This document shows, one piece after another, positions 1,695-54,968 of a stretch of DNA of 63,761 bases. Both the position numbers and the translations under genes were made by a program. The notes beneath the pieces were generated by a model, which ran no database searches, was not told where the DNA came from, and worked only from the letters and a program-made list of their open reading frames with translations. Each line of letters opens with the position of its first letter. Within the stretch, counting starts at the first letter, position 1. The stretch spans positions 35,632,869 through 35,696,629 of the forward strand of contig NC_057710.1 of the NCBI RefSeq assembly GCF_004010195.1, written 5' to 3'. The DNA comes from Chiloscyllium plagiosum. Lineage: Eukaryota.

Positions 1695-3866
1695 GTAAGC
1701 AAGCAAGGCTAAGCCTGGCAATAAGACAGATTCTATTGAGACTAATTCCCTTGTTTTGTCCTTTTCTACACTGTTTTCTGCCAATATTATCATTTTAATT
1801 TATACCTAAGTCAGTGTAGCACAAATTTCTTGCCAGCACAACTCGCATAAGACAAAAAGCCCAACCTATTGACTTACTGTCAATGGAACTCTGAAGTAAT
1901 GAATATTGCAGTCCCATCCTCTCTGCTGCTGTTCTCTCCTGGGAGTGCTGACTCATGATAAACTAAGGTTCCATGAGCGTTGACAGTCGTCTGGTGCTTT
2001 GCCAAGCTGGGCCTTTGCTGAGTCTGTGAGCTGTGCGGGTGAAGTGTCAACGCATGTTATTTGACTGAAAGGCATATCAAAGCCAGACCTGATCCTGCCC
2101 TCATCTGATGCTCACAGTCCAGCAGAATCGCCACGCATCAATCAGGAAGCTCATTTTTTTTCCCTCCCGAGCCTGAGGACCCTGAACTGGAGCAATCCCA
2201 TCATGCTGCTCTGACTATGATTGACGACCACTTCGCACATACTAGATGAAACCATGAACTTGCACTGCACCTGGGAGAGAAAATACCTAATGCACTATTG
2301 CCTGGGTGGTTGTAATTGCTTCTCTGATGTAAGGCTCAGCAAATATTCCAAGTAATCTTTTATGACAAGCATTGATCAATAGATTATTTGCATAAGTAAA
2401 GATGCCAGCTCAGAGAAATATCTCATTTATGGCAATATAATATCCAGCACGAAAAGTAAAAATGACAAAAAGATGGACCATCATCCCAAAATAGAATAAT
2501 TCTCCAACATTTCTATAGTTTTCAGTGGCCTGGCAGATGTCATACTGTAGCAAGTAAACATCCAACAGTTTTTCATCTGCACAGAAGTGGACAATGGAAT
2601 CTAATAAACACTGAATAAAATCAGGTTAAGTAGGTCTTAGTCTATGGATAATGAGAGCACTTTGCACTAAATAAGAATGATTACATTGCATTTTCACATG
2701 GTCTCTTTTGATCTTATATTGTCATGTAAAAAGTGAGTTTTAAAAGCTTTGGTGTGCTCTTGTGTTGATGTTCTGGCATATTACCATTTTACTGCTGTCT
2801 TTTCTGAGATGGAGAGACAGTTAAACACTACTGCAATTAAAAAGAAAGAAGACCATATTGGAAAATAACAAGCTTTAGGAGGATCTGCTGGTAGGATTTG
2901 ATGAAGGGTCAGGCTGCTGTGGAGGATAGACATTGGTGGGGACCATTTGGGCTGAATAGTCTGTTTCCATGCTATAATTATGATGTAATTCCATGTAATG
3001 ATGGGCTGAGTTTTCATAGAACAAAGAACAGTACAGAACAGAACAGACCCTTCAGCCCACGATGTTGTGCCGACCATTGATCCTCATGTATGCACCCTCA
3101 AATTTCTGTGACCATATGCATGTTCAGCAGTCTCTTAAATGTCCCCAATGACCTTGCTTCCACAACTGCTACTGGCAATGCATTCCATGCTCTCTCAACT
3201 CTGTGTAAAGAACCCACCTCTGACATCCCCTCTGTACTTTCCTCCAACCAGCTTAAAACTATGACTCTTTCTGTTAGCCATTTCTGCCCTGGGAAATAGC
3301 CTCTGACTATCGACTCTATCTGTGCCTCACATTATCTTGTATACCTCAATTAGGTCCCCTCTGCTCCTCCTTTTCTCCAATGAAAAAAGTCCAAGCTCAG
3401 TGAACCTCTCTCTGTAAGATAAGCCCTCCAGTCCAGGCAGCATCCTGGTAAACCTCCTCTGAACCCTCTCCAAAGCATCCACATCTTTCCTATAATAGGG
3501 CGACCAGAACTGGACGCAGTATTCCAAGTGCGGTCTAACCAAAGTTTTATAGAGCTGCAACAAGATCTCACGACTCTTAAACTCAATCCCCCTGTTAATG
3601 AAAGCCAAAACACCATATGCTTTCTTAATAACCCTGTCCACTTGGGTGGCCACTTTAAGGGATCTATGTACCTGCACCCCAAGATCCCTCTGTTCCTCCA
3701 CACTGCCAAGAATCCTATCCTTAAGCCTGTACTCAGCTTCCAAATTCGACCTTCCAAAATGCATCACCTCGCATTTACCCAGGTTGAACTCCATCTGCCA
3801 CCTCACAGCCCATCTCTGCATCTTGTCAATGTCCCACTGCAGCCTACAACAGCCCTCTATACTCTC

Positions 3867-4475
3867 NNNNNNNNNNNNNNNNNNNNNNNNNNNNNNNNNN
3901 NNNNNNNNNNNNNNNNNNNNNNNNNNNNNNNNNNNNNNNNNNNNNNNNNNNNNNNNNNNNNNNNNNNNNNNNNNNNNNNNNNNNNNNNNNNNNNNNNNNN
4001 NNNNNNNNNNNNNNNNNNNNNNNNNNNNNNNNNNNNNNNNNNNNNNNNNNNNNNNNNNNNNNNNNNNNNNNNNNNNNNNNNNNNNNNNNNNNNNNNNNNN
4101 NNNNNNNNNNNNNNNNNNNNNNNNNNNNNNNNNNNNNNNNNNNNNNNNNNNNNNNNNNNNNNNNNNNNNNNNNNNNNNNNNNNNNNNNNNNNNNNNNNNN
4201 NNNNNNNNNNNNNNNNNNNNNNNNNNNNNNNNNNNNNNNNNNNNNNNNNNNNNNNNNNNNNNNNNNNNNNNNNNNNNNNNNNNNNNNNNNNNNNNNNNNN
4301 NNNNNNNNNNNNNNNNNNNNNNNNNNNNNNNNNNNNNNNNNNNNNNNNNNNNNNNNNNNNNNNNNNNNNNNNNNNNNNNNNNNNNNNNNNNNNNNNNNNN
4401 NNNNNNNNNNNNNNNNNNNNNNNNNNNNNNNNNNNNNNNNNNNNNNNNNNNNNNNNNNNNNNNNNNNNNNNNNNN
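3867..4475. other. Assembly gap (N run)
   Basis: Run of n. Confidence 1.
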
Positions 4476-4705
4476 CACAAGTGTAAAATGCCTTTGTGTT
4501 CTCCCTAATCCGTTCTGCCAAGCCTTTCTTGTGTCCCCTCCTGGCTCTCCTCAGACAATTTTTGAGCTCCTTCCTCGCTTGCCTGTAATCCTGTAGAGCT
4601 GAGCTTGACCCTAGCTTCCTCCACCTTACGTAAGCTACCTTCTTCCTTTTGACGAGAAGCTCCACCGCTCTCGTCATCCAAGGTTCCTTTATCTTACCAC
4701 TTCTT

Positions 4706-4905
4706 AAAAATGTGTTGCTGGAAAAGCGCAGCAGGTCAGGCAGCATCAAAGGAACAGGAGAATCGACATTTTGGGCATAAGCCCTTCTTCAGGAATCTGC
4801 CTGAAATGTCGATTCTCCTGCTCCTTTGATGCTGCCTGACCTGCTGTGCTTTTCCAGCAACACATTTTTAAGCTCTGATCTCCAGCATCTGCGGTCCTCA
4901 CTTCC
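4706..4905 (+). mobile_element. PLE-derived foldback insertion (two opposed pLTR halves) with 14-bp TSD
   Basis: Inverted arms aaaaatgtgttgctggaaaagcgcagcagg... and ...cctgctgtgcttttccagcaacacattttt; TSD tcttaccacttctt (4692-4705) / tcttaccccttctt (4906-4919). Confidence 0.88.
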
Positions 4906-7072: not shown

Positions 7073-8320
7073 GGGCGGCACGGTGGCACAGTGGTTAGCA
7101 CTGCTGCCTCACAGTGCCAGAGACCTGGGTTCAATTCTCACTTCAGGCAACTATCTGTGTGGAGTTTGCACATTCGCCCTGTGTCTGTGTGGCTTTCCTC
7201 TGGGTGCTCTGGTTTCCTCCCACAGTCCAAAGATAATAGATAATAGGTGCAGGAGTAGGCCATTCTGTCCTTCGAGCCTGCATCACCATTCATTATGATC
7301 ATGGCTGATCATCCTCAATCAGTATCCTGTTCCTGCCTTATCCCCATAACCCTTGATTCCACTATCCTTGAGAGCTCTATCCAACTCTTTCTTAAATGAA
7401 TCCAGAGACTGGGCCCCCACTGCTTCTGGGGCAGAGCATTCCACACACCCACTACTCTCTGCGTGAAGAGGTTTCTCCTCATCTCTGTCCTAAATGGCCT
7501 ACCCCTTATTTTTAAGCTGTGTCCTCTGGTTCGGGACTCACCCATCAGCGGAAACATGTTTCCTGCCTCCAGAGTGTCCAATCCTTTAATAATCTTATAC
7601 GTCTCAATCAGATCCCCTCTCAGTCTTCTAAACTCAAGGGTATACAAGCCCAGTCGCTCCAGTCTTTCAACATAAAATAGCCCTGCCATTCCAGGCATTG
7701 ACCTCGTGAACCTACGCTGCACTCCCTCAATAGCCAGAATGTCTTTTCTCAAATTTGGAGACCAGAACTACACACAATACTCCAGGTGCGGTCTCACCAG
7801 GGCCCTGTACAGCTGCAGAAGAACCTCTTTGCTTCTATACTCAATCCCTCTTGTTATGAAGGCCAGCATGCTATTAGCCTTCTTCACTACCTGCTGTACC
7901 TGCATGCTTGCCTTCATTGACTGGTGTACAAGAACACCCAGATCTCTCTGTACTGCCCCTTTACCTAAATTGATTCCATTTAGGTAGTAATCTGCCTTCC
8001 TGTTCTTGCCACCAAAGTGGATAACCATACATTTATCCACATTACACTGCATCTGCCATGCATCTGTCCACTCACCTAACCTGTCTAGGTCACCCTGTAA
8101 TCTCCTAACATCCTCCTCACATTTCACCCTGCCACCCAGCTTTGTGCAGGTCAGATGAATTGGCCATGCTAAATTACCCGTAGTGTTAGGTGATGGGGTA
8201 AATTGTAAGGGAATGAGTCTGGGTGGGTTGCTCTCGGAGGGTCGGTGTCGACTTGTTGGGCCGAAGGGCCTGATTCCATACTGTAAGTAATCTAATCTAA
8301 TCTAATCTAATCTAATCTAC
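7073..8320 (+). mobile_element. HE1-type tRNA-derived SINE, split by a CR1 (7073-7234 and 8144-8320)
   Basis: A box TGGCACAGTGG and B box GGTTCAATTC; body ...ccacagtccaaagat|gtgcaggtcag...; CR1-like tail ending in (aatct)n. Confidence 0.9.
7235..8143 (-). mobile_element. Young 5'-truncated CR1 LINE
   Basis: ORFs 7768-8127 and 7315-7752 (LQGDLDRLGEW...LVRPHLEYCV; GDLIETYKII...FTQRVVGVWNALP). Confidence 0.95.
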
Positions 8321-10071
8321 TAGCCATAGTGGGTGTGCAGTGGATGTTCACTGGGCTGCTATTGGGGTGGCAGGACTGTCATACAAGGCCAGATTGTTTC
8401 AACTGGGCCTGTATTCAGAAGAATGAAAGGGGATCTGAATGAAATATATGACATTCTAATGGGATAGAACAGACTAGATTCAGGTACAATGTTTTCCCTC
8501 GATGTGGAGTCTAAAACCAGGAATGTAGTCTCAGTATATGGAGTAGACCATTTAGGACTTAGATGAAGAAATATTTCTTCACTCAAAGGGTAGGGAACTC
8601 CCTGCCTCAGAATGATGTGGAGGCTAATTCACTGAATATGTTCAAGAAAGAGGTAGATAAAACTTGGAGATTTTAAAGGCATCCATGCATATGGAGAGAA
8701 AGCAAGAATATTGCACTGAGCTAGAGGATCAGCCCTGATCCTATTAAATGTGGAACAGTATCAAAGGGATGAATGGCCTCCCCTGCTCCAAGTTTCCATA
8801 TGACTATGTTTAATTGTGGTTTCAAATGCAGCACCCCAAAGCAATCCAGCTGACAAATCACTGTGGATCTAGCTAGTTCTATTTTAGTCTGTGTAGGATT
8901 CTTCTTCTTGTGAGCCAGCAGGAATAGGCTCCAACAACTCTTTGAATCGGCAGCTCTAATGTGGTGGCTGAGGAAAAAGGAATGGTATTTCAAGCCATGT
9001 CCTCTTACCACCACTTGCTCACGATTGGTAGGACAGGAGTGGGGTGTTGCGTTGTGTCCCAGGAGTGCGGGAGTAAATGATCCCAGCAAGTTTTCGGACA
9101 GAAGGACTCAGCATTTGACAACTCAGCACCATTTCCTGCTTGACCTTCCAGAGGAAAGTCCAGAGCAGCATTTTATTTTGATAAGTCTGACTTGAATCCA
9201 AAGGCGGAAGCTAGTAGTCTATAACCATCACTGGAGGTATGACTAGAAGAAGATTGCAATGTACAGTGGCATTCCTGAAATGTCATCTTCAAATCACCAT
9301 TTTATTGTAAGCTTCCAAAATTCCCATTTATTCTTACAAGCTTACCTTTGGTCCATTCATCTTTCAATGACTTACTGTATTATTTAACAATTCCTGGTCC
9401 ATGCATACATTCGCTTAGATTTCCCAACATATAACACATAGACAGATTGAACTTTCATATTCTGTAGCAATGGATTGAAATATGATAATCAGAGGCACAC
9501 AGGGATTCTCTAAATATTGAAACTTTTCAATTAGCACATCACCTCCTAACAATGCTGCCGCTTGTGGTATGGTGATAATTGTGATGTTTCTCAGTCCTAC
9601 GTATGGATCATTAAGGCATGATAGTTTTCAGTCAGACACTTCTCAAACTAATAGTACTGAATTACTTCATACCAAAAGTTTCATGGCTTTACCAGATTTT
9701 CTTAATAATTTTTTTCAGCAGCACTTCCCTCAATTTTAGGGGACATGGAAGATTTGTAATTGGAAAGGTAAGTTCTGCCCATGACAGATCTGCCAGCATC
9801 TTCATCCTTTCCCCTTGTGCTGTTCCTGTTAGTGATCTATGAGCGCAGAAGTGAGTCAATAATGCTCTCTTCAGGCAGAAAGATTTCAACATCCTAAAGT
9901 CTCCACTTCTCTAAATGCAAGCTGAAGCCCACTGAACTTTGAATAGTCGGCAGGTCTGGCAACATACATGGAGAGAAAGCAGAGTTAATACTTTGAGTCT
10001 AGTGACTGTTTTTCAGGACTGGTCAGTAGACGAAAGTTTAACTCTGTTTAGGTTTCTTTAAAGATTTTTTA

Positions 10072-10396
10072 ATAGAATCCTAGAGCGTGGAAACAGGCCA
10101 TCCAGCCCAACAAGTCCACACCTACCCAACCCCCTACTCTATCCGTGTAATCCTGCATATCCCCTCACTAGTGCACCTAATCTACACACCCCTGAACAAT
10201 ATGGGTAATTCAACATGGTCAATTTACCTAACCTGCACACCTTTGGACTGTGGGAGGAAACTGGAGCACCCAGCAGAAGTCCACACAGGCATAGGGAGAA
10301 CGTGCAAACTCCACACAGACAGTCCCCTGAGGCTGGAAGCGAACTCAGGACTCTGGTCCTGTGAGGCAGCAGTGCTTACCACTGAGCTACTGTGCT
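10072..10396 (-). mobile_element. HE1-type tRNA SINE
   Basis: Reverse complement of the 7073 SINE family (gtgaggcagcagtgcttaccactgagc head; gtggaaacaggcc tail). Confidence 0.88.
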
Positions 10397-10820
10397 AATG
10401 TACCCTTTTCTTGTGAGAGGGTACACGTAACTCTCCAGCACCGCATTGAACTATCTATTCTTCACATGAACTGAAACAGTGAGGGCCAATGGATGATTTG
10501 ATCGTGGTGTATATTCTCTACAGAGTCACACACTCACAGAAACACGTGTGCATGTACACACACATTCCCATTTGGACCCAAATATGGAGCAGGAATCCTG
10601 GTTAACTTCACTTGTATAGCTCAAAGACACAGAGACAGATTGCTGTGATCAGCTAATTCATCATTGATTGACAGTTGAATGTAGGAACAAGTGTCTACTT
10701 TGTGTGGTGTTAGAGAATTATACAATATTTTAACTATGGCTAACTTAAAGATCATTTGTAACACATTGAGTAATGGGATCAGTTTCTGAAGTTACTGAAT
10801 TCAATGTTGAGACCTTTTTT

Positions 10821-11132
10821 GGGGCAACATAGTGGCTCAGTGGTTAGCACTGCTGCCTCACAGCACCAGAGCCCTGCGTTCAATTCCACCCTTGAGCAAC
10901 TGTCTGTATGGATTTGTACATTCTCCCCGTGTCTGTTTGTGTTTACGCTGGGTGCTCCAGTTTCCTCCCACAGTCTAAAAATGTGCAGGTTAGGTGGGTT
11001 GGCCATGGGAAATGCAGGGTTCTGGGGATAAGGTAGGAGAGTGGGTGTAGATAGGACACTCTTCAGAGGGTTGGCGTGAACTCGATGGGCCAAACAGTCT
11101 GCTTCCACACTGTAGAGATTCTACGTTCTATG
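10821..11132 (+). mobile_element. HE1-type tRNA SINE
   Basis: gtggctcagtggttagcactgctgcctcacagc head and gcttccacactgtagagattcta tail. Confidence 0.88.
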
Positions 11133-11149: not shown

Positions 11150-11605
11150 TGCTTAAGTGGAAATTGAGGTGTTGTTCTTCAAGCTTATGTTGTGCTCCAT
11201 TGGAACATTACAGCAGGCCCAAGACAGAAGTGTTAGCCTGACAGCAAAGTGGGCAAAGTAAGCTCAGGGGCATTCTAACAGATAAAGCAGAGGTATTCTT
11301 CCAAGTGGTCAGCCTGTGTTTGCTGTCCCCAGTGTAAAGGAGACCACATGGTGATTTGTTGACTTTGCTTTTAGCCAAGAGGACCTATTTTCAACCTTTC
11401 ATGCCCTAACTTACACAACTTTGCATCCCTATTTCTCTGTTACCACAATTAGCAACCCCTATGCATTTTGCATTGGGTCTCCATACCTTCTGTTTACTTG
11501 GTTCCTCCTTTGCCTCTGTCAATAGAAGTAGATCGGAATCAAAACATTAACTCTGTTACTCTACTCACAGATGATGCCAGAGCTGCTGAGGTTTTGCATT
11601 TTTGG
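11150..11605. mobile_element. Degraded Penelope fragment (GIY-YIG region on minus strand, pLTR on plus strand)
   Basis: gaggtgttgttcttcaagctta... resembles 19195-19260; aaaacattaactctgttactctactcacagatgatgccag resembles the pLTR at 13445-13490. Confidence 0.5.
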
Positions 11606-13049: not shown

Positions 13050-13770
13050 CATAAGAAAATCAGAGTCATGGAGTCAATTAACATGGTCCAATTCATCCAT
13101 GCTGACCAAGTTTCCTAACTGAACTAGTCACACTTATTTGCATTTGGTCTATATCCCTCAAAACCTTTCCTATTCTTGTCACTATCCAAATGTCACTTAA
13201 ATGTTGTAACTGTACCTACATCCACCACTTCCTCTGGCAGTTCATTCCACATGTGAATCACCCTCTGTGTGAAAAAGTTGCCCTCAAGGTGCCTCCTAAA
13301 TCTTAATAAAAACCAAAAGAACTGCAGATGCTGTAAATCAGAAACAAAAACAGAAATTGTGGGAAAAGCTCAGCATGTCTGACAGCATCTGTGAAGAGAA
13401 ATCAGAGTTAACGTTTTGGATCTGAAGAATGGTCACTGGGCCGGAAACATTAACTCTGATTTCTCTCCACAGATGCTGCCACACCTGTTGAGCTTTTCCA
13501 GCCATTTCTGTTTTTGCTCCCTTTTAAATCTTTCTCCTCTCACCTCAAAAATATGCTCCCTAGTTTTGAACTTTCCCACCCAAGGGAAAGACCTTGGCCT
13601 GACCTATGCCCCTTATGATTTTATAAATCTTTATAAGGTCACCCCTCAACTTCCTGTGCTCCAGTGAAAAAACTCCCAGCCTTTCCAACCTCTTCTTATA
13701 ACTCAAAGCCTCCAGTATCAGCAACATGTTGGTTAATCTTTTCTGAGCCCTCTTTAATTTAATAATATCC
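13050..13770 (-). mobile_element. CR1 LINE 3' end containing a PLE foldback insertion
   Basis: ccaccacttcctctggcagttcattccac...ccctctgtgtgaaaaagttgccc and ttataaatctttataaggtcacccctcaac (reverse of GDLIKIYKI). Confidence 0.85.
13305..13519 (-). mobile_element. PLE foldback insertion, second pLTR subfamily
   Basis: Arms aaaaacagaaattgtgggaaaagctcagc...cagagttaacgttt and aaacattaactctg...gagcttttccagccatttctgttttt; central CTGAAGA...GAAAC (13422-13448); TSD cctcctaaatctt / ccttttaaatctt. Confidence 0.82.
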
Positions 13771-18780: not shown

Positions 18781-19395
18781 GAGAAAGATGCTGGAGATCA
18801 GAGTCGAAAAGCTTGGCACTGGGAAAGCACAGCAGATCAGGCAGCATCTGAAGAGCAGGAGAGTCAACGATTCAGGCGTAAGCCCTTCATCAGGTATGTG
18901 GAGAGTGGTGGGGAGGCGGAGGAAGGGGACTGAGAGATAAATAGGAGGGTGGGGTTGAGGCTGGGGGAAAGGTAGCTGGGAAGGCGATAGGGGTTTCTGG
19001 TGGGGGGTGTTGGTGATAGTTTGGAGTGGAGGGTATAGCAGATAGGTGGGAAGTAAGATGCACAGGTAGGACAGTTCAAGAGGGTGGTGCCGAGTTGGAA
19101 GGGTGGATCTGGGATGAGGTGGGGGGGAGGGGAGACTAGGAAACTAGTGAAATTTACATTGATGTTGTGTGGTTGGAAGGCCCCAAGGTGGAAGCTGAGG
19201 TGTTCTTCCTCCAGGCATCTGATGGCTAGAGTTTGGCGGTGGAGGAGGCCCAGGACTTGCATGTCCTTGGTGGAGTGGGAGGGGGAGTTGAAGTGGTCGG
19301 CCACAGGGCGGTGCGAGTGTCCCAGAGGTGTTGCCTGAAACGTTCCGTGAGTTGGCATCCTGTCTCCCCAATGTAGAGGAGAACACATCTTGCAG
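18781..19395 (-). mobile_element. Penelope 3' fragment: GIY-YIG C-terminal part plus pLTR with hammerhead motif
   Basis: RPVADHFNSPSHSTKDMQVLGLL...LEEEHLSFHLGAFQPHNINVNF; minus strand CTGATGAAGGGCTTACGCCTGAATCGTT at ~18865-18893. Confidence 0.9.
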
Positions 19396-19825
19396 AGATG
19401 GTAGTGCCAGAGCTGGGTAGTGATGGCAGTCATGGATCAAGGATGGAGGTAAGTCAGGGCTATTGAGGAGGTAGGTATTAGGCATCTTAGGGAGGGGAAT
19501 TGCAGGAGGTGTGGGCTTTGCAGTGCAAATGGGGAGGAAGGAGGGTGCTATTTTCTGGCTAGGTGTAGCCAATGTGTGAAGTCCACTCGTTGAAGACAGC
19601 AACCCCTTCCTTCTTGCAATTTTAATACCACTTCCAGAAAAACTGGCTCTCCATTTCTGCCTGGTGTGGTGTGGGTGAGATAATATTGGGGTAAATAAGC
19701 TTTTAATGATCTCTTAATTGTTTATTTACCTGAGGCCGGTCAGCTGATGATTTAGACTCTCACCCAAACTCCATGTCGTCAGGGAGAGTCAGTGGAAGGG
19801 TGGGAATGTGGCAGGTCAGTCAACT

Positions 19826-20729: not shown

Positions 20730-21090
20730 AGAAAAACAGCAAATGCTGGAAATCTGAAACAAAAGTAGAAAATTCAGAATAAACATAACAGGAAGTTTCT
20801 CAACTTCTGAAAGGACTAAAATATATTTTGAGCGATAGACACATCATCAGAACTTCGCTTTCAGTTTTGACAATGATTCTGCACCTAAAATATTACACCA
20901 AATCTGCTGCTGCTTTCCCTCCAATTCTACACTATTTCCCTTTTCTCAAATTTGTCATATTCCTGGGGACATACCCAGTACTCTTTTAAAAGTCACTACA
21001 GGGCTGAAAGGTTAACTCTGTTTTGCTCTCCACAGATGTTGCCAGACCTGCTGACTATTTGCAACACATTCTGGTTTTACTTCAGCTTTG
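20730..21090. mobile_element. Degraded opposed PLE pLTR pair
   Basis: aaacagcaaatgctggaaatctgaaacaaaagtagaaa (minus pLTR end) and gaaaggttaactctgttttgctctccacagatgttgccagacctgctg (plus pLTR). Confidence 0.55.
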
Positions 21091-22039
21091 GAGCATTCTT
21101 ACTATCATGCGTTTGTGAAAGTAAATTGCTACCTCGCACAGCAAGTGTACAGACAAGCAACCCCAGGGTGATTAACTCCCTGTGCCCACCAGGGATAAAA
21201 CTCACCTGATTGGTCCTTAAAATGCTCACAAGGCAAGATTCTTGTTCAATCCCCCAAGCCTCCCCTGATGGGGCACTGTGATGAAACTGTAATCAAATAG
21301 CCAGTGAAAACTTACAGAACTGTCAAGGAAACTTATCAAATTTACATCAAAATTATCATTACCAGATAATGTAGTCCATTGCCTATGGTCCCCACTGGTC
21401 CCTAAAGGCTTGTATTTTACTGGTAGAGATTGCAAGGTCCCTCATGTTGGACATCTGAGTGTGGATATAACCACAGAGGAGGGGCAGAGAGTCAAGAACT
21501 ACAATCCCTTCCCAGGACTTTTCTAGCCTGCAGAAATGAATGGTAATTGGGCCTTTGGTGAGTTAAGAGGCTATTAATTGACTGTTTAAGGGCCTGTTTG
21601 GTAGTGGGATGGGAGAGTCCGTCAGGACTGGAAATGGCTTGCTGAGTTAGTGAAAAGGGGACAAGTATCTCTCCAGGGCTACTTTGTTCAATTATCTGTT
21701 TTCTCATCACCTCCAGGGAGGAGAAAAGTACACCCCTGTGGGAACTGATGTTACACGAGTGACAAATAGGTCACTGGGGAAAAGTCATTAGGAGGAGAGT
21801 TGAGGGGATAAGTTGTGCAGCAAAAGGAGCATTTCTCTTTTCAACATTCTGCTGCTAAAGTCACCAAAGAATGTACAACGGCTTCTTCCTTGAAGGAAAA
21901 AAGATATGAAAGAAAAGTTGTGGGCTTGCTCGAGAATGACTGGTAGAGTTGCAACAGACTGTACAAAACGAGGTAACATGTGAACATCAATGTGACAGTC
22001 ACACAGAATAATGTCCCTGACCCAGTATTGTCAATGAAA

Positions 22040-24600: not shown

Positions 24601-25178
24601 TCCAGTAAGTTATTTTAAACCTGGGGTTTTTCTTGCCCTTCCCTGCAATACGTGTCTCAAATGTTGCCTACAGAAACTTCTTAATACTAAAGCTACAGTC
24701 ATTTAGTGGAATTAAGAAATAAAGCTGTTTTATTAATGTAAGTGTCTTCAAAGGGTGGAATTTTCTAGTTTTTGAATCCTCCAAATGTGGTAGCAGATGC
24801 CAAAAGTCATAGGACACCCCTTGCCACCATAAACAGGACAGACTACCAGATCCAGCAGACAGTAAGTGGCCAACTGATGAGCCTTTGGGCAGTGGAACAA
24901 TGATACCATACCTGCCTTGGAGTTGTCAGAGGTTCTGAGGCTAGCAGCATTGGGATAGCAGCATCATCTCAGGGACTGAGGCTGCCAACTGCACAGCAAC
25001 TCCAAAGTCCAGGAGAGAGGCCAAGGTCGGTCACCTTTCAGTGAAGATCATAGGGTAATGATCACAGGAATACGGTGCTAAGGGAAGAATCACTGAATCA
25101 CAGAGGTGCTAGCTCAGAAGTAGGTCATTCAGCTCAATGTGCCCAGACTGGTTCATTATATGAACATCATTTTCAAGT

Positions 25179-25403
25179 AGAAAGTGAGGACTGCAGATGC
25201 TGGAGATCAGAGCTGAAAATGTGTTGCTGGAAAAGCGCAGCAGGTCAGGCAGCATCCAAGGAACAGGAGAATCGACATTTCGGGCATAAGCCCTTTTTCA
25301 GGACATAAGCCATTCCTGAAGAAGGGCTTATGCCCGAAACGTCGATTCTCCTGTTCCTTGGATGCTGCCTGACCTGCTGCGCTTTTCCAGCAACACATTT
25401 TCA
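25179..25403 (-). mobile_element. Young PLE foldback insertion with a near-perfect 90-bp inverted repeat
   Basis: Arms 25214-25303 and 25314-25403 differ at 2 positions; 10-nt loop; extra 35-nt pLTR terminus on the left; TSD catcattttcaagt (25165-25178) / catcattttgaagt (25402-25415). Confidence 0.92.
25316..25343 (+). ncRNA. Minimal hammerhead ribozyme motif (intact core)
   Basis: CTGAAGA-A-GGGC-TTAT-GCCC-GAAA-CGTC; all core nucleotides present, with a palindromic ACGT in place of helix III. Confidence 0.7.
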
Positions 25404-25689
25404 TCATTTTGAAGTGCAAATCTCCTGCCTTCTCCTGCATACATTTGCACAAATTATTTCTATCCAACTAATCATCCAAAGCGCTCTCAAATGACTTAAT
25501 TGAACTTTCCATCCACACACTTCCAGGCAGTGCATTCCATACCCTAACTGCTCGCTGAGTGAAAACCTTTAACCATACTTCTTTTGCAGGTCACTTCTGA
25601 CCCATGCTGGTGATGGGAGCAATGTTGAACAGTGACAGTACAGACAGGGCTAATCATTACAACTTGTTGTAAAAAAAACCCACAACCTT

Positions 25690-27002: not shown

Positions 27003-27515
27003 AAAAGTGAGGATTGCAGATGCTGGAAATCAGAGTCTAGTTTAGCGTGGTCCTGGAAAAGCACAGAGGGTCAGGCAGCATCCAAGGAGCAGGAAAATCG
27101 ATGTTTCGGGCAAAACCCTTTATCAAAAATGAAGGCAGGGAGCCTCCGGGGTGGAGAGATAAATGGGGGAGTGGGGCTGGGGAGAAGGTAGCCAACAGTA
27201 CAATAGATGGATGGAGGTGAGGATGAAGGTGATGGGTCGGAGAGGAGGGTGGAGCGGATAGGTGGAAAGGAAGATTGGCAGGTAGGACAGGTCATGAGGA
27301 TGGTGCTCCTGGAGATGTTCCCTAAAGCACTCTGCGAGAAGGCATCCAGTCTCCCCAATGTAGAGGAGACCGCATCGGGAGCAACGGATACAATAAATGA
27401 CATTGGTGGATGTGCAGGTGAAACTTTGATGGATGTGAAAGGCTCCTTTAGGGCCTTGGATAGAGGTGAGGGAGGAGGTGTGGGTGCAGATTTTGCAATT
27501 CCTGCGGTGGCAGGA
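27003..27515 (-). mobile_element. Penelope fragment: GIY-YIG endonuclease N-terminal part (internal deletion) plus pLTR
   Basis: CKICTHTS...FTCTSTNVIYCIRCSRCGLLYIGETG...FREHL (VIY...YIG motif); pLTR at 27003-27125. Confidence 0.92.
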
Positions 27516-27524
27516 GGAGGAAAA

Positions 27525-27960
27525 CTGCACAGTTGTGGGGACCTCATTGCAGAGAGTTCAGAAATGATTTCCAAGAATGGTTCCAGGGCTGAGAAACATC
27601 AGTTATGGGGATAGATTTAAGAAGTTGGGAGTATTCTCTTTCAAGAGAAGAAAGTTGAGTGTTTTGATGGAGGTTTTGGAAATTGTGAGCAGACTGGATA
27701 GAATAGATAGAGAAAGAAGAACAAGTGGACATAGATTGAAGATGATATACAAATAAAACAAGGGAATTGTAAGATGTACACAGCGGGTAGTTAGGATATA
27801 GAATGCCCTGCCTGGAAATATGGTGAGGTATTCAGGAGGGCATTGGATGATTATTTGAAAAAAAAAAGCAGTGTGCAAAAATATGGGGGAAAGGCAGGGA
27901 ATTGGCGCTAGGTAATGAAGATCATTGGGCTGAATGGCCTCCATCTATGGTTCTGTGAAT
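27525..27960 (+). mobile_element. CR1 3' fragment
   Basis: gagagttcagaaatgatttccaagaatggttccagg...gggctgaatggcctccatctatggttctgtga. Confidence 0.75.
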
Positions 27961-28940: not shown

Positions 28941-30854
28941 TCTATATTTCCAGTGCTTGGTCTGGCCATCTGGATTACTTGACCAGGAACATAACCACTT
29001 TTGCTCCTGGACTTTTTTGCCATTACATTTGATAATCAGAAAGTTTTGAGGCCAGTATTCAAAACATGAAGTTCCAGATATCTGTTTCTAAGAAAAGAGT
29101 CACATTTCACGGTCGGCACAGGCATGTTGGGCAAAAAGGCTTGTACCTGTGCTTTCTTTGTTTAATTTTAGCTCTGAAGTGTCCACATAGTGAAAACTAA
29201 AGAAAGTCACTTTATTGAATGGCTATCCCTTACAGCAACGAAGAGGCGGAATGAGTAGCCTAACAGACATATCTGCAACGAGAAAGGGGAAGAAAATATT
29301 AAAGTATAGGAACGCACAGGAGGAGGAAATAGTCCAGAGCAGTGGCCAATGATCATAGAACAAAAAACATATTTTCTACAAAATTTACTGAATCCAATTC
29401 TGGTTGAAAATCATCAGCAAAAAATAAGTGCAGAGTGTACCACGTAGACCTCCAACTTTATTTGTGAGAGATAATGAAGTGAATGTGTTGCTGAAGAATT
29501 ACAAAGAAGATTGAAGAAAGTAGGGGTCCAAAGGTAAAATGAATCAAATTCTATAAACTTCTTTCAAAGATTAACAAGTTGAATTGAGGTGAATGCTCTC
29601 TGACAAGAGAGAATAAGTGAAACACACATCTCCCATGATAAATATGAGCTTAGACAAACTACTAGCTGGCCGTAATACATCCTCACAAATATCTAGATAC
29701 TCCTGGAGTGACAGCATTAAGCCCAATTAATTTTTATGGCATGATGCTCACCATGTTCCTCACTGTAATGCATGATCATACTGGCACTGACAATGACGGC
29801 TCAGAGGCAACTGCTGGGAAGCTGGGATAGTCAGGGAAGAGTAATTGCATGAGTAGTGGGGACCCCTGGAATAGGGGGGAACCAGGTGCTTGTTTTGGGA
29901 TAAGGAGGACCATTTCTGCTTATCCTGGTTCACAAGCAAACCACAAATCAATTTTTAGAAACGAACCTGACTAAGCCCCTGATACCCCTCCCAGTGCAGC
30001 TAATGACAGCAGTCGTTGCTCACAATTTCCGAAACCTCCATCAAAGAGTGCAAACTGTCTCTGGTGACTGTTCTTGGTGTTTTTAATATAAAATTGCAGT
30101 TAGCCAGAGTGGAGCAGTAAATTCCCACTCCCATCCCCCTTCTGTTTCCTGTCAGTGGGGATGCTAAATTCAAGCCTCTCATCTTAATAGGGTACACAGT
30201 GAGCTAAGACTGGGCAATCGATTCACAGAGAATGGATAATCCATTCTTTAAGCTTTCTTAAAAGGCCATCTCATCTAAAATATTTTGTTACCACAGGAAC
30301 TATTATTAGTTTGTTATTGATTAAGCTGAGCTGAGCGAGTAAAATATTTTAGTGCCTCTGTAAATTTCTATTTTATGCTGGTGCAAGGGATTTGACTTAA
30401 AAAAATGCTGAATCTGGGTTAATTCATACAAATAATAAAAAAGAGAAACAATGCAATAAGGTGAATTTTCAGACTGACTCAGCCATCCTTGGCATAGATT
30501 TAAGTGTGGATTCTCTAGGTCCAGCACTCTGGTACAGTGAGTATAAGTACTCGGAAATTGATTGGTGGACACACATGTTGTAGTGGATGCCTTCCAGCCT
30601 TCCTACATGTTACCATTCAAGATGTTTTTGTGAATTTTCCTCCCCATACAAGTTTTCTGCATTCCCAAGAAGACTTGGTGTGGTCTACAGACACCATGTC
30701 TTCAGGTGATGCATAATTATCAAAACAAAGCAATGGCCAGCATTTGTAAATGCAAAAACACTGACCATTGCTCAATCTGGAGCAAGCCGTCACTGACACA
30801 ACAAAAGGTTTGGCAGACAAAGAATGGGATTCTAACCAGCTTTTTAAAAAAAAA

Positions 30855-31449
30855 TCGAGGAAGTAAGAAAAATATGCAGAGGTTGTTTTTCATTTATTCC
30901 TGGAATCTATGCAGAAGAAATAGGGATGGATCTGCACTTTTATTTTACCACAGGATACCTAATGCATTGATAACTGAGGTAGAGTGCGGGTAATGAAAAC
31001 AAAAAAATGTTGGAAATCACAGTGGGTCAGGCAGTGACTTTGACCGACTTGGTTTCCTGAGCCTCAGGATAGCTGACAGTTCCATCCTGGGGAGGGTTTC
31101 CCAAATTCAGAGGGTGCAAGCTCTTATGCTTCCCTCTTCGATCTGGCTTATCTGTTTGAGCAACATGCATTGGGCTATTTCCCCAGACCATTCCTCGAGA
31201 CATTCGACTTGAGGTTGGATGGAAATCCTGCAAACTCGAAATGTGAGCTTGCTCTCTCTCCACAGATGCTGCCTGACCAGTGTGATTTCCAACATTTTTT
31301 TGTTTTCACTACAGGCACTCTACCTCAGTTATCTACGCATTAGGTATCTTGTGGTGAAATGGACAGAACACATCCATCTCGATTTCTTTTGCATATAATT
31401 CAGGGAATCAATGGAAAATAAATACTGCATATTTTTCTTACTTCCTCGA
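30855..31449. repeat. Long imperfect inverted repeat (~180-bp arms, ~235-bp spacer) incorporating PLE pLTR ends
   Basis: Arm 1 30855-31034 (tcgaggaagtaagaaaaatatgcag...gataactgaggtagagtgc...ggtcaggcag); arm 2 31269-31449 is its reverse complement. Confidence 0.9.
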
Positions 31450-32129
31450 ATAGTTTTTCCTATGTTCTGAAGCTAATTTGTATATCTGTACATGTGGTGA
31501 CATGCATCGGTGTTTCCCCACTCTGTAGGGAATTGCCTTATCCTTTGCCTTTTAATTTTACTTAGAGATCCTGGCTGGAAAGGACAAAACCATTGCCATT
31601 AGTTACCTTAATGGAATATATGTTTTCCTGTCACTTCATGACACAATGCACAACAAGCTTCCAAATCAAGATAAATTTAAAAGCAATGTTACTTTGCCGA
31701 AACTGAGTAAGATATACCAATAGCATTCATTCTCAATGCATTTTACTTTATTTGGTCAGTAGCATATCTGATAAACACAGAAATTCATTATCATCCTTAA
31801 TAGTCTCCAAACCTTGGAACTGAGGAAAATGTGTAGGTGGAGTGTATGTTATTTATTTCAATTGTTCTTCTCCAGAATGCATCAGCTATGCCCAGAAATT
31901 TGAAGTGGTAGTTGGTGATATACAGGATAAATGAATTTGCAATTCTGAGTAGGGGTATTACTTGTTTAATGGGATGAAACTAAAAGCCCTGCTAGCTTCT
32001 TGCTTTTTAAAAATTTTGCACATTAGTTGTTAGAATATTGGCACTCAGAGTGAGCTTGAGCTAAGTAAGAAGAGTCCCAGACCTCTCCAGTGAACCTGTC
32101 CATATCTCAGTAATTAAGAAGAGTTGGCG

Positions 32130-32918: not shown

Positions 32919-33137
32919 TGATAAAACGTGGAGCTGGAAAAAACACAGCAGGTCAAGCAACACCGGAGGGGCAAGAGAGTCAATGTTTCAGGTAGGACTC
33001 TTCATCAGGCTAAATGAATCCTGCCCAAACATTGACTCCCCTGCTCCTCTGATGCTGCTTAACCTGCTGTGTTGTTTCCAGCTCCACGTTTTATCGACTC
33101 TGACTTTCTAGCATCTGCAGTTCTCACTATCTCCAAG
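32919..33137 (+). mobile_element. PLE foldback insertion with 12-bp TSD
   Basis: Arms gataaaacgtggagctggaaa... and ...tttccagctccacgttttatc; TSD tattccatcaca (32907-32918 and 33138-33149); minus-strand CTGATGA...GAAAC at ~32980-33008. Confidence 0.9.
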
Positions 33138-34715
33138 TATTCCATCACACTCATGAACTTGTGTCTTGATAATAGACACTTTGTGGCGTCATAAGGTGAA
33201 TTTGTTTCTGACTTACTTTTGTAGCTACAGTATTTGTACAGCTAGTCCAGTTCACTTTCTGTTCAATAGTAACGCCTAGGAGTTGATAGTGGGGCATTCA
33301 GTTATGATAACACCATTGAATGTAAAGTGGCAGTGGTTAGAATTTCCTTTGTTTGAGATGATCATTAGGAACATGTGCAATGCAAACCTAGATATAATAC
33401 AGGTCTGATTGCATTTGAACATGGACTGTTTCAGCATTAGAACAGTTGTGAATGATGCTGAACATTGTGTATTAATCTGCAAACATTTCCACTTTTGATC
33501 TTTTGATAAAAGGATGGGTTGATGGAGCACCAGAAGATGCCCACCCACAGCTTCCAACCTCATAGTCCGGGAACCCCGCACTGCCCGGTTCTACCTCCTT
33601 CCCAAGATCCACAAGCCTGACCACCCTGGCTGACCCATTGTCTCAGCATGCTCCTGCCCCACTGAACTCATCTCTACCTACCTCGACACTGTCCTATCCC
33701 CCTAGTCCAGGAACTCCCCACATACCGTTCGAGACACCACCCACGCCCTCCACCTCCTCCAAGACTTCCGTTTCCCCGGCCCCCAACGCCTCATCTTCAC
33801 CATGGATATCCAATCCCTCTACACCTCCATCCACCATGACCAGGGCCTCCAAGCCCTCCGTTTTTACCTCTCCAGACGTCCCCAACAGTACCCTTCCACC
33901 GACACTCTCATTCGCTTGGCCGAACTGGTCCTCACCCTTAACAACTCCTTCGAATCCTCCCACTTCCTCCAGACCAAAGGGGTAGCCATGGGCACACATA
34001 TGGGCCCCAGCTATGCCTGTCTCTTGGTTGGCTACGTAGAGCAGTTGATCTTCCGTAATTACACCGGCACCACTCCCCACCTCTTCCTCCACTACATTGA
34101 TGACTGCATTGGCGCCACCTCGTGCTCCCGCGAGGAGGTTGAGCAATTCATCAACTTCACCAACACATTCCACCCCGACCTTAAATTTACCTGGACCATC
34201 TCCGACACCTGGCTCCCCTTCCTGGACCTCTCCATCTCCATCAGTGACGACAGACTTGACACTGACATTTTCTACAAACCCACCGACCCACAGCTACCTG
34301 GATTACACCTCTTCCCACCCGACCTCTTGCAAAAATGCCATCCCGTATTCCCAATCCCTCCGCCTCCGCCGTATCTGCTCCCAGGAGGAGCGGTTCCACC
34401 ATAGAACACACCAGATGGCCTCCTTCTTTACAGACCGCAATTTCCCTTCCCACGTGGTTAAAGATGCCCTCCAACGCATCTCATCCACACCCCGCACCTC
34501 CGCCCTCAGACCCAACCCCTCCAACCGCAACAAGGACAGAACGCCCCTGGTGCCCACCTTCCACCCTACCAACCTTCGCATAAACCAAATCATCCGCCGA
34601 CATTTCCACCACCTCCAAACAGACCCCACCACCAGGGATATATTTCCCTCCCCACACCTTTCCGTCTATCGCAAAGATCGTTCCCTCCGTGACTACCTGG
34701 TCAGGTCCACGACCC

Positions 34716-35088
34716 NNNNNNNNNNNNNNNNNNNNNNNNNNNNNNNNNNNNNNNNNNNNNNNNNNNNNNNNNNNNNNNNNNNNNNNNNNNNNNNNNNNNN
34801 NNNNNNNNNNNNNNNNNNNNNNNNNNNNNNNNNNNNNNNNNNNNNNNNNNNNNNNNNNNNNNNNNNNNNNNNNNNNNNNNNNNNNNNNNNNNNNNNNNNN
34901 NNNNNNNNNNNNNNNNNNNNNNNNNNNNNNNNNNNNNNNNNNNNNNNNNNNNNNNNNNNNNNNNNNNNNNNNNNNNNNNNNNNNNNNNNNNNNNNNNNNN
35001 NNNNNNNNNNNNNNNNNNNNNNNNNNNNNNNNNNNNNNNNNNNNNNNNNNNNNNNNNNNNNNNNNNNNNNNNNNNNNNNNNNNNNNNN
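34716..35088. other. Assembly gap (N run)
   Basis: Run of n. Confidence 1.
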
Positions 35089-35127
35089 AGCTTATCTCTC
35101 CACGCTTCAGGCTCTCTGCCTTTATTC

Positions 35128-35155
35128 CTGATGAAGGGCTTTTGCCCGAAACGTC
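35128..35155 (+). ncRNA. Minimal hammerhead ribozyme motif (intact core) in Penelope pLTR
   Basis: CTGATGA-A-GGGC-TTTT-GCCC-GAAA-CGTC. Confidence 0.72.
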
Positions 35156-36029
35156 GATTTTGCTGCTCGTCGGATGCTGCCTGAATTGCTGTGCTCTTCC
35201 AGCACCACTGATCCAGAATATGCTGTGGAAGTCATTCGGACATGATCCTGAGTTGAGATGACTGACTTCCAACAACCACAGCAATCTTCCTATGTGCTAT
35301 ATTTGACTAACCAATGGAGGGTTTTCCTCCTGATTGACTCCAGTTTTACTTGGGCTCCTTTTTGCCACTCATTCAAATGCAGCTACAATTCAAGGGCAAT
35401 TACTCTTGCCTCATGTCTAGAATTCAGCTCTTTTTTCTTTGCTTGAAATAAAGCTGTAATGAGTGGCCCTGGCAGAATGCAAACTGCCAGTGAGGACTTA
35501 ATGTGAGTAAGGATATACACTGGAGGGTTCTGACTCAGCTCACAGTACAACGAGATACTTTGACCAAGGACACAATGAAATAGTCACCTCTGAATGGAAC
35601 AAAAGTACAACTGAAGATTTCAGCTGTAGGTGAAATAAAATAATGGCAGAGATGTGCCATATTACAGATGTGGAAGTAGGCCATCTTAGTGGGGAAGAGA
35701 ATATGGGATTTGAAGGTCAGATCAAGGTCAAATAAGATCACCTTTAATGCCATCTTTTGAGAGCATGGTGTATTGAGAATTTCTTACAAATGTCAAGGTG
35801 AAGACAATTGTAAAATATCCGAGTACATTATCACTATTCCTGTTGATGGATGTACTGATACAAACTATACTGTAAGATAAAGTGGTTCGATCAGTTTGGT
35901 ATGTATCAATAGTAGCTGCTGCTTGCATCTCTACTATTTACCAAAGCTAGATACCAATTTATGGTTTGTTATTAACACTGAGTACCTGCTAATTTTTTGT
36001 TGCTATTACATGAAGACTATAATTATAGA

Positions 36030-42585: not shown

Positions 42586-43260
42586 CTCTTGTAATGATGA
42601 AGAATATACTAATTGCCTTCCGAATTGCTTTCATTGACTGGTGTACAAGGACACCCAAATTCCCTTGTACATCCGTATTTTGCAATATATTATCATTTAA
42701 ATAATACTCTGCCTTTCTGTTTCTCACAGTGAAATGTGTAACTTCATTTTGATTCACATTGTACACAATCTACCATGCGGGAGAAAGTGAGGACTGCAGA
42801 TGCTGGAGATCAGAGCCAAAAAGGGTGATGCTGGAAAAGCACAGCCAGTCAGGCAGCACCTGAGGAGCAGGAGAATCAATGTTTCCAGTATAGGCTCTTA
42901 GCTGGAATGGTCCCACATTCTGGATATATTGACTGTCCTGCTCCTCGGATGCTGCCTGACCGGCTGTGTTTTTCCAGCACCACATTTTTGGACTACTGTC
43001 TACCATGGTTTTGCCTACACGCTCAAGTTGTCTAGATTCTGTACCGGTATGTTATCTCCAATCCCATGTTCTTTTGTTTTGCCCACTCGCCTCTTACGTG
43101 GGATCTTATCAAAAGACTTCTTGAAATCCAAATGCACCATATCCACTGGTTTGTCCTTATCGTTTCTTTAGTTAAATCCTTGAGAACACTCCAGTAGATT
43201 AGCTGAATATCATTTCCCTTTCATAAACCCATGCTGGCTTAGCTGTCCTGAACTATTTAG
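42586..43260 (-). mobile_element. Older CR1 RT fragment hosting a PLE foldback
   Basis: RKAEYYLNDNILQNTDVQGNLGVLVHQSMK; SQHGFMKGK. Confidence 0.8.
42778..42998 (-). mobile_element. PLE foldback insertion with 9-bp TSD
   Basis: Opposed pLTR halves gctggaaaagcacagccagtcaggcagca / tgctgcctgaccggctgtgtttttccagc; TSD tctaccatg (42769-42777 and 42999-43007). Confidence 0.85.
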
Positions 43261-47909: not shown

Positions 47910-48227
47910 CGGGCAGCATGGTGGCTCAGTGGTTAGCACTGCTGCCCCACAGCACCAGGGTCCCAGGTTCGATTCCAGCCTCAGATGACTGTGTGGAGTT
48001 TGCACAATCTCCCCGTGTCTGTGTGGGTTTCCTCCGGATGCTCTGGTTTCCTCCCACAGTCCAAAGATGTACAGATCAGGTGAATTGACCATGCTAAATT
48101 GCCCATAATGTTAGGTATGTTAATCAATGGGAAATGGGTCTGGGTGGGTTACTCTTCAGAGGGCCGATGTGGACTTGTTGGGCCGAAGGGCCAGTTTCCA
48201 CACTGTAGGGAATCTAATCTAATCTAA
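47910..48227 (+). mobile_element. HE1-type tRNA SINE
   Basis: ggtggctcagtggttagcactgctg...ggttcgattcc; tail (aatct)n. Confidence 0.9.
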
Positions 48228-48859
48228 TTCTAAACTCCAAAGCTGATGTCCGGTTCCACCTCTACCTCAGACACTACCTCTGAGGATGATGACTCCGAAC
48301 TCTCTGAGGATACAAGTTGATGTGTGCCCTTCCCCAGCTGAGAGACATTCACCTCGGTGGATTCACTTTCCAGAATGGGCTTGGAGTCACTGTCTGGTGA
48401 GCTGATTTGATTTATTGTTGTCACATGTACCTAGGTGAAGTGAAAAGTTTTGTTTTGCATGCAGTACAGGCAGATCACAGCATACAAGGACATATAGATC
48501 AGAGAGTGTATAGACAGAGCACGGCACACAAAGTTATGGCTGCACAGGAAGTGTACATTAATATTAACATACAGATCAACGTTAGATTTGAAATTTGAGA
48601 GCTCCATTCAGCAGTGTAACCACAGTGGGGAAGAAACTATTCTTGAAACTGTTAATACGTGTGTTCAGGCTTCTGTATCTTCTGCCTGATGGAGGAGGTT
48701 GGAAGAGATTATAACCAGGCTGGGAAGGGTCTTTGATGATATTGGCTGCTTCTCCATGGCAATGAGAAGAATAGTGATGGTCTGGGCTTTGTCCACAACT
48801 TTCTGTAGCAGTTGCCGTACCAAGCCGTCATCCACCCAGACAGAAAGCTTTCCGTGGTT

Positions 48860-49201
48860 CATAGAATCCCTACAGTGTGAAAGAAGGCTATTCTGCTCAT
48901 TGAGCTCACACAGACTCTCTGAAGAGCATCCGAACCAGACCCACCTCCCTACCCTATCCCTGTAACCCTGCATATCCCATGGCTAAATCACTTAACCTAC
49001 GCATCCGTGGACACTATGAGACAATTTAGCATGGCCAATCCACCTGACCTACATATCTTTGGACTGTGGGAGGAAACTGAAGCACCTGATGCAAACCCAC
49101 ACAGACATGGGGAGAAGGGGCAAACTCCTCACAGACAGTCACCTAAGGCTGGAATTGAACCCGGGTCCCAGGTGCTGTGAGGCAGCAGTGCTAACCACTG
49201 T
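48860..49201 (-). mobile_element. HE1-type tRNA SINE
   Basis: catagaatccctacagtgtg...gtgaggcagcagtgctaaccactg. Confidence 0.9.
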
Positions 49202-51320: not shown

Positions 51321-51814
51321 TCAATAACTGTCCAATTTAGCGAAATGAGATGTTCGTGCTAACATGGGAATCCAAGGCCCCCAGTCAGCAGAGATTGATA
51401 AGCTGTGGTGATATTGCAGTGCTTCACCCTGGCTGGAATCTGGTGGCAATGAGGTTGGAGTGGGCCTGTCTGTTACTTTATACCATTGTCTTGGCATCTG
51501 CCATTCCAGCTACACTGTTCCCTATATCCCCATCAGCTCCGTCATTCCCATTTCTCTGCAAGAGAGATGACATGTGACTTCTCCCAGCACCCTTCCACAA
51601 ATCTCTCCTTCCTTTGCTGAGCAATGTTGTGCAGGGCATAAAACAATGGATGCCCTCTCTGGCAGGGACTGCAGAGCTCCAACAGTGTGGTCCAAGCAGA
51701 AGAACACACTACCATTCAAGATCGGAGATGGTTACAGAGACTAGTGAATTCGGCCCAGACAATCACAAAGGCCAACCTCCCATCTATAGAATCCACCTAC
51801 CAGACCCATTGTCA

Positions 51815-54887: not shown

Positions 54888-54968
54888 GAGTGGTGCTGAA
54901 AAAGAACAACAGGTCAGGCAGCATCTGAGGAGAAGGAAAATCGATGTTTCATGCAAAAGCCCTTCATT
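54888..54968 (-). mobile_element. Solo PLE pLTR fragment
   Basis: gagtggtgctgaaaaagaacaacaggtcaggcagcatctgaggagaaggaaaatcgatgtttcatgcaaaagcccttcat. Confidence 0.75.

Follow-up and report, generated by a model that had tools for sequence, protein, structure and literature searches.

Palindromic pLTR insertions of Penelope-like elements read as probable joined pairs of target-primed cDNAs

We examined short palindromes in a stretch of 63,761 nt from the bamboo shark Chiloscyllium plagiosum (the window; coordinates are counted from its first letter). We estimate a probability of about 0.6 that they consist of two coupled target-primed cDNAs, made on an uncleaved pLTR RNA that ends at the front edge of the hammerhead and end-joined head to head. 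Positions in the pLTR are numbered from the C of CUGA (+1), with the predicted cut after +28. The hammerhead numbering (core G8 and G12, cut +28/+29) follows common usage and PMC4209133.

Results

Setting of the palindromes

The window is most likely intronic sequence of the bamboo shark DCC gene, and one exon was recognized in it.

1370-1690 (approximate limits), + strand, host DCC exon, 100% identity with Chiloscyllium punctatum DCC

The palindromes lie downstream of this exon, presumably in the next intron. An inverted-repeat scan of the whole window gave 12 pairs, five of which are the palindromes named in a preliminary description made from the sequence. The density given there (5 in 64 kb) was borne out as 5 in 62.3 kb of non-N sequence, about 1 per 12 kb, and a likely sixth, disrupted palindrome was found in addition. 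Other inverted pairs at 47986-49137, 10214-11007 and 30846-31458 have arms of 61-116 nt that are 250-920 nt apart and belong to different repeats; both arms of the last pair include weak pLTR matches. LINE-type RT fragments, which by appearance we take to be CR1/L2-like, are located at 3327-4550 (-) and 7315-8301 (-), and the palindrome at 4706 sits inside one of them. Solo pLTR stubs of several families are present at 54885-54967 (-), 21000-21096, 31233-31303, 11539-11598 and 56083-56179. The stub at 54967 starts at about +4, has no tail and carries a short repeated stretch on its flanks.

Anatomy of the type example

The type example is composed of the following parts.

25165-25178, no strand, left TSD copy, 13/14 identical to 25402-25415
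25179-25213, - strand, tail, on this arm only, 35 nt (37 with 2 nt common to the right TSD)
25214-25303, - strand, tail-bearing pLTR arm, 5' start at -2
25274-25301, - strand, minimal hammerhead with G8 changed to A, predicted inactive (motif scan; the core reads CUGAAAA)
25304-25311, + strand, 8-nt templated junction insert, a copy of helix II (sequence read)
25312-25401, + strand, tail-less pLTR arm, 5' start at -4/-5
25316-25343, + strand, minimal hammerhead motif of type I, intact, with the cut predicted to follow 25343 (motif scan; fits the minimal hammerhead description in PMC4209133)
25402-25415, no strand, right TSD copy, 13/14 identical to 25165-25178

The inverted-repeat scan reproduced the arms reported earlier, 25214-25303 and 25314-25403, in coordinates, length (90 nt) and complementarity (98%), with a gap of 10 nt between them. 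The insertion body (25179-25401) is bounded by both TSD copies. The reported 14-bp TSD was recovered with 13 of 14 positions identical, and only 1 of 2899 random flank pairs matched its length. The tail ends where the long copy at 53669 ends, which is also the main loose end (53671) in the public reads. As had been noted, the loop contains an 8-nt copy of arm sequence, which belongs to helix II. We read this copy as an insertion templated at the junction; template switching as the cause of the inversion, of which it had been called a signature, is not demonstrated by it.

Four further palindromes share the design

The design had been reported to recur at 4706, 13305, 32919 and 42778, and the inverted-repeat scan returned all four (pairs 4703/4798, 13345/13445, 32920/33027 and 42814/42917).

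4706-4905, no strand, palindrome of the type-example subfamily; arm starts at -4 (tail-less) and +16/17 (with tail); TSD 4692-4705/4906-4919 (14 nt, 1 mismatch)
13305-13516, no strand, palindrome belonging to another PLE family; arm starts near -1 (tail-less) and near +18 (with tail); TSD of 8 nt, exact but weak by itself (null p 0.12)
32919-33137, no strand, older palindrome; arm starts near -1 (tail-less) and at +11/12 (with tail); TSD 32907-32918/33138-33149 (12 nt exact)
42778-42994, no strand, older palindrome; arm starts at -5 (with tail) and near +16 (tail-less); TSD 42769-42777/42999-43007 (9 nt exact, null p 0.03, moderate)
9947-10050, no strand, likely sixth palindrome, 13305 family; right arm interrupted by a later repeat (read by eye)

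TSDs of the five palindromes are strong in three cases, moderate in one and weak in one. Two uninterrupted host-repeat copies in the window carry the stretch duplicated around 32919 only once and continue into its right flank, which confirms insertion with target duplication. For 13305, a single related stretch is read through in one uninterrupted host-repeat copy. The asymmetry described before, one arm about 35 nt short of the other, was found throughout as a one-sided tail of 35-41 nt (5/5). The centres differ among the five elements. Computed folds of -99 to -186 kcal/mol agree with the suggestion, as a prediction, that each palindrome would form a long hairpin.

The arms are pLTRs of Penelope-like elements

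Longer PLE copies in the window connect the palindrome arms to coding remnants.

51814-53669, + strand, 5'-truncated PLE: RT remnant, N gap, pLTR and tail; pLTR 92% identical to the type example, hammerhead at 53547
33541-35225, + strand, 5'-truncated PLE: RT remnant, N gap and tail-less pLTR; hammerhead at 35128
27004-27551, - strand, PLE 3' end: linker/GIY-YIG remnant, then pLTR with tail (profile and homolog search)
18786-19424, - strand, PLE 3' end: endonuclease C-terminal remnant, then pLTR (profile and homolog search)

RT remnants at 33541-34711 and 51814-52930 run into the same pLTR that forms the palindrome arms, with 92% identity between a palindrome arm and the pLTR copy at 53545-53669; no RT remnant lies inside a palindrome. 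The best named relatives of the RT fragment are Chiloscyllium proteins (76-81%), and full-length relatives at 52-56% identity contain RVT_1, a Cys-rich linker and GIY-YIG. One RT fragment was missed by Pfam and was then placed via homolog search. GIY-YIG is present in the homologs P0012 (just under the cut-off) and P0038, whose C-terminal part matches 27551-27285, 19424-19146 and 57534-57355, each upstream of a pLTR. In the two longest PLE copies of the window the endonuclease part falls in the N gap.

A profile built from 11 window arms has 26 matches in the window, 10 of which are the arms of the five palindromes. In the arm-to-arm comparison, which took in four palindromes and excluded 13305, the partner arm was the best or tied-best match for 7/8 arms (8/8 allowing a rounding tie), at 99, 94, 84 and 83%. 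By the identity of their arms, the palindromes are pLTR-only, ORF-less insertions of EN+ Penelope-like elements, and the preliminary description was right to call them minimal products of PLE origin. A Cys-rich Zn-finger-like linker between RT and EN, along with RT phylogeny, is given as a criterion of the Neptune clade (PMC8557442). The linker, which also occurs in Nematis, tentatively suggests that the shark PLEs are of Neptune rather than Poseidon type.

Hammerhead motifs and starts of the arms

A hammerhead core on each strand had been described for the design. This holds for the type example, the only one of the five palindromes in which the motif scan finds two near-complete cores, one of them with G8A. 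It does not hold for the other four, which have a single core plus a 3' half; there one arm starts within helix II (+11 to +18) and lacks CUGANGA. The second core has decayed in 4706 (G12 lost) and in 42778, and a core that is plausible and lies on the strand of the pre-mRNA survives in 2 of the 10 arms at most. The MFE fold of the monomer is not a hammerhead; the core is intact at 25316-25343 and broken at 25301 (G8A). An Rfam search did not find the hammerhead and returned four sub-threshold miRNA-hairpin matches, which score 30-41 bits where 75-90 would be required. For monomers of minimal hammerheads, no in vitro cleavage is reported (PMC4209133), and the earlier suggestion that the hairpin sequesters the ribozyme is unsupported.

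The starts of the tail-less and tail arms are -5/-2 in 25179, -4/+16 in 4706, about -1/+18 in 13305, about -1/+11 in 32919 and about +16/-5 in 42778. The cut site of the ribozyme (+28/+29) is not the start of any of the 10 arms; all cross it into the core, which excludes cleaved RNA as the template of these arms. The inversion point does lie at or within the hammerhead in all five palindromes, as claimed, but never at the cut site. Likewise, the breakpoints are tied to the position of the ribozyme, yet the view that its structure sets them finds neither the cut site nor one structural stop. The shark 5' limit is at -4/-5 and begins with ATT; its sequence fits an initiator consensus. A cap-derived extra G, checked by eye at the 5' limit, was not consistent.

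The same design in metagenomes

A generic back-to-back hammerhead pattern found 117 loci in metagenome contigs (26 of 64 parts scanned). Merging of 19 as duplicates with identical centres left 98 loci in 51 sequence groups. The pattern demands one complete core and a second arm at most 36 nt off, and it is blind to starts 3' of +24 and to elements with both arms at the limit. Arms extend at least 25 nt past the pattern in 69/98 loci (28 sequence groups). Three large families comprise 45 loci under five assembly prefixes, probably from one host. Outside them, 23/29 of the loci with such extended arms show a TSD of 10-17 nt together with a one-sided offset of 22-60 nt (null 9/600). The pLTR palindrome design is therefore general, being found in other hosts and not specific to sharks. 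These hosts are AT-rich and presumably animals; the PLE identity of their loci is a putative one, assigned from motif, tail and TSD, with no RT seen beside the palindromes in flanks of 300-400 nt. In viral contigs the generic pattern had 0 matches, as did a shark-specific 28-mer in metagenomes. The 23 matches of a 17-mer scan of viral contigs were taken as chance.

Centres also differ between near-identical metagenome copies. This bears on the idea that the palindrome itself is mobile, as a MITE-like DNA element or a palindromic non-autonomous retroelement. A uniform length of about 200-225 bp, TSDs and high density would fit such an element. Against it, the centres differ in the window and in nearly all deduplicated loci (partly built in, since identical centres, 19/117, were merged), the two ends are unlike, RT-bearing elements have the same arm as their pLTR, and the form recurs in several families. 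We consider it hardly credible. A MITE was rejected on the offset of the ends by the tail and on centres that are not common to the copies. No link to Eulor/UCON repeats was found in the available text of PMC5753468, and this candidate was also dropped.

Exactly one tail and coupled start sites

Exactly one tail is present in 38 of the 45 loci of the three families, two tails in none, and no tail in seven (two of which are cut by the contig end). These counts are incompatible with start sites chosen independently (p 9e-7, 45 loci). Exactly one tail, never two, points to two priming events that are coupled, on one RNA or in one complex. The tail-less arm reaches further 5' in 32/38 loci of the three families (p 2e-5) and in 4/5 shark elements. 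Greater length of the tail-less arm was discarded as a universal rule, since the 14 callable loci outside the three families are split 7:7 (2 not callable).

The 5' limit

The 5' limit, to which the longer arm extends, is family-specific. In one subfamily it lies at -11 in 10/21 loci; with few loci each, other limits are at -12 (3/10), -12 (2/9) and -8 (2/5). Shared letters beyond -11 were part of the second arm in the cases read by eye. Shorter arms start at scattered positions from -4 to +23, with no peak at a helix edge (45 loci).

On the same two-cDNA route, the limit might be set by the folded or protein-bound ribozyme, through an RT stop on a longer RNA or 5' exonuclease trimming to helix I; this is the strongest form of the idea in the preliminary description. 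The limit is indeed family-dependent (-4, -8, -11, -12). Its distance from the 5' end of the predicted pairing with the post-cut sequence is 1-2 nt at most, in duplex predictions run with no control and, for the shark, by eye, and a structure-defined end would account for this position just as well. Further, the anole hammerhead is protein-assisted (PMC11167929), and 4/5 shark short arms begin in or beside helix II. However, the duplexes are weak (-2.6 to -5.0 kcal/mol), with 3/4 outside the catalytic register, the short-arm starts lack a helix-edge peak, and five longer window copies run straight through the hammerhead. An RT moving 3' to 5' would reach the 5' strand of helix I only once its partner strand had been copied, so the fold would already be unwound at the 5' edge of the ribozyme, and stalling there fits poorly. 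A template 5' end fits the end of the longer arm and the scattered starts of the short arm better than RT stalling. We regard a limit set by the ribozyme as unlikely, while the closeness of the limit to the 5' edge of helix I leaves room for a structural role.

Every 5' limit found, in shark and metagenomes, opens with ATT. The limit could thus be a DNA cut instead of an RNA end, if the nascent copy is cleaved by the GIY-YIG endonuclease at an ATT motif where the pLTR starts; the anole enzyme favours 5'-ATT-3' near the ORF-pLTR junction (PMC11167929). Yet the TSD ends of the five shark elements have no fixed ATT, and ATT is common in these AT-rich sequences. ATT is also compatible with the initiator consensus. 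This explanation seems to us very improbable.

Junctions between the arms

Among the 45 loci, the junctions comprise 26 with insertions (1-17 nt), 7 blunt and 12 with overlaps (1-5 nt). Overlaps of 1, 2 and 3 or more nt in the 19 insertion-free junctions number 5, 5 and 2, near the 5.6, 2.5 and 1.6 expected by chance. Variants common to both arms of one element number 10 against a mean of 3.4 for re-paired arms (0/2000 shuffles; 8 loci); in 17 loci, all from the youngest subfamily, there were no shared variants for this comparison. The metagenome palindromes L113, L037, L065 and L140 carry at the junction either a further piece of pLTR in tandem or a repeat of the 5'-limit stretch, which suggests repeated template jumps at the cDNA end.

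A single cDNA or antisense template could also have folded back and self-primed inside the hammerhead, with the endonuclease then removing one tail. Fold-back was put forward for inverted PLE junctions (PMC3846280), and it accounts for variants shared by the arms and for one arm starting inside the other. But it requires overlap at the junction, which reaches at least 2 nt in only 7/45 loci, about the chance level, and insertions are present in 26/45. Nor can fold-back from a target-primed sense template yield a tail on the shorter arm, as is seen in 32/38 loci of the three families and 4/5 window elements. We give this route a low probability. Junction insertions together with chance-level overlaps argue for end-joining and not fold-back.

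Public reads aligned to a related copy

The non-palindromic copy 53420-53760 served as reference for two DNA contig sets (two organisms) and one informative RNA run; the pile-up is family-wide. The alignments comprise about 84,000 and 71,000 pieces from the contig sets and 3,296 reads from the RNA run; a second RNA run of the same sample gave no aligned reads. A sharp element end at 53671 is shared by 1134 and 1210 contigs and by 672 RNA reads. Among the 15 joints listed of 66, nine change strand, five of these at -8 to +1, and three are tail-to-head restarts, two of these at -8 and +2. Inverted pLTR junctions therefore exist in independent data. RNA depth is about 4x higher across the 5' edge of the hammerhead, a difference confounded by upstream subfamily divergence, and 93% of RNA reads continue into unlike sequence, as expected of host transcripts. 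The RNA and DNA alignments to 53420-53760 list no point where many molecules begin. Loose ends at 53575/53576 and 53620 were considered as cut-site or start signals and rejected, as they are private mismatches of the reference and the reads continue in the element.

In the family-wide pile-up of the one RNA run, there are 34 A>G and 46 T>C places against 11-15 and 25-27 in the DNA sets, and transversions are up equally, so no specific A>G editing signal is seen on 53420-53760. The earlier suggestion that the hairpins are potential ADAR or Dicer substrates is unsupported. In 6 and 5 contigs of the two DNA sets the tail end is joined to about +37 to +40 (53583-53586), slightly 3' of where the hammerhead would cut, through six pyrimidines common to both sides. 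This joint could reflect a microhomology insertion into another pLTR, or retrozyme-like tandem units from cleaved RNA. At 53670, 189 RNA reads exit the tail into one sequence (agreement 0.84) that contains AATAAA, which suggests that an expressed host transcript has a pLTR copy close to its 3' end.

Discussion

Proposed formation of the palindromes

The anatomy of the insertions, their PLE identity, the one-tail rule, the 5' limits and the junction types can be read directly from the sequences. From them we infer the order of priming, the nature of the template 5' end and the pathway of joining. The PLE protein would cut both target strands, and the two cut ends would serve as primers for separate cDNAs copied from the pLTR RNA. 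Priming at the outer start site would give one cDNA its tail; the other would begin at the inner site, at a distance of 35-41 nt, in a coupled choice. The template would be uncleaved at this hammerhead with its 5' end at the front edge, for which a transcription start in an upstream pLTR copy would be the simplest source. Both cDNAs would then be 90-125 nt long, short because priming in the upstream pLTR of the transcript leaves only this length to copy. The free cDNA ends would be end-joined, one of them usually trimmed or stopped inside the core and often with a few bases inserted. Each palindrome would be built afresh at insertion as a dead product, neither a mobile MITE nor a selected hairpin.

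Several of these steps have precedents. Work in vitro with the anole PLE protein shows cutting and extension on both target strands; two RT start sites bound the tail, and the main template is uncleaved RNA (PMC11167929). In two studied PLEs, transcription starts inside the pLTRs (PMC8557442). As a counterpoint, anole and Drosophila elements have a pLTR that begins far upstream of the hammerhead (PMC11167929, PMC4209133, PMC8557442).

A bolder version is that, across animals, a dimeric PLE protein makes two tandem cDNAs on an RNA starting at the first base of the hammerhead. The inner RT would run off and the outer one would stop behind it, the tail would equal the spacing of the active sites, and the stubs would be a footprint of RNP geometry and the main PLE product in sharks. 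The one-tail rule (38/45) and the further 5' reach of the tail-less arm (32/38, and 4/5 in shark) speak for it, and the 7:7 split elsewhere speaks against it. We offer this version tentatively and consider it rather doubtful.

Significance

The origin of inverted pLTRs and the role of the hammerhead in PLEs are described as open questions (PMC8557442, PMC11167929). In the stubs, natural junctions are available by the thousand, with the ends of both cDNAs readable; they exclude cleaved RNA as template for these arms and show the coupled use of two start sites. They are also an annotation trap, as they resemble MITEs or miRNA hairpins to tools. An intronic load of perfect hairpins, at about one per 12 kb in this window, might conceivably be relevant to dsRNA handling in sharks.

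Comparison with known systems

In L1 twin priming, cDNAs primed by both target strands are joined head to head, which produces an inversion. The arms of L1 inversions copy different, adjacent parts of the RNA, whereas both shark arms copy the same 70-90 nt.

The minimal hammerheads of metazoan PLEs (PMC4209133) share CUGANGA, one extra base, a short helix II, GAAA and a palindromic ACGU replacing helix III with the motifs described here. Opposite-strand pairs of such hammerheads 100-700 bp apart are reported from Schistosoma (PMC4209133, which in the available text mentions no sharks); the shark motifs differ in being 15-40 nt apart, back to back and usually with one partial. Like the palindromes, animal non-LTR retrozymes are short, non-coding, hammerhead-bearing and pLTR-derived (bioRxiv 10.64898/2026.07.22.740005; see also PMC7229834). 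We rejected this assignment because retrozymes are head-to-tail tandem units, each bearing a type I hammerhead, whereas the shark arms lie head to head with a tail and TSD.

Poseidon PAc of Anolis resembles the shark elements in two tail-bounding RT starts about 110-125 nt from helix II, extension of both strands and an uncleaved template (PMC11167929). It differs in that no strand difference in start site is reported, and inverted products and cDNA 5' limits are not addressed in the available text of that paper.

The inverted pLTR, 30-40-nt tail and TSD of EN+ PLE insertions were already described (PMC3846280, PMC8557442, PMC8969392). In these sources, as available, solo pLTRs are described, but pLTR-only palindromes are not described as a class. 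Our literature search, with most subscription papers and the Repbase/Dfam notes outside its coverage, found no paper on pLTR-only palindromes, their 5' limit or sharks, which is weak evidence of novelty. The shark insertions share with EN+ PLEs a head-to-head inverted pLTR of unequal length, a tail at one end and a TSD of about 9-14 bp, and differ in having no ORF, no second direct pLTR and a total length of about 210 bp. They are thus the smallest clean case of the known PLE insertion architecture, whose PLE origin the preliminary description had correctly recognized. To this architecture our analysis adds cross-host generality, coupled start sites and a family-specific 5' limit.
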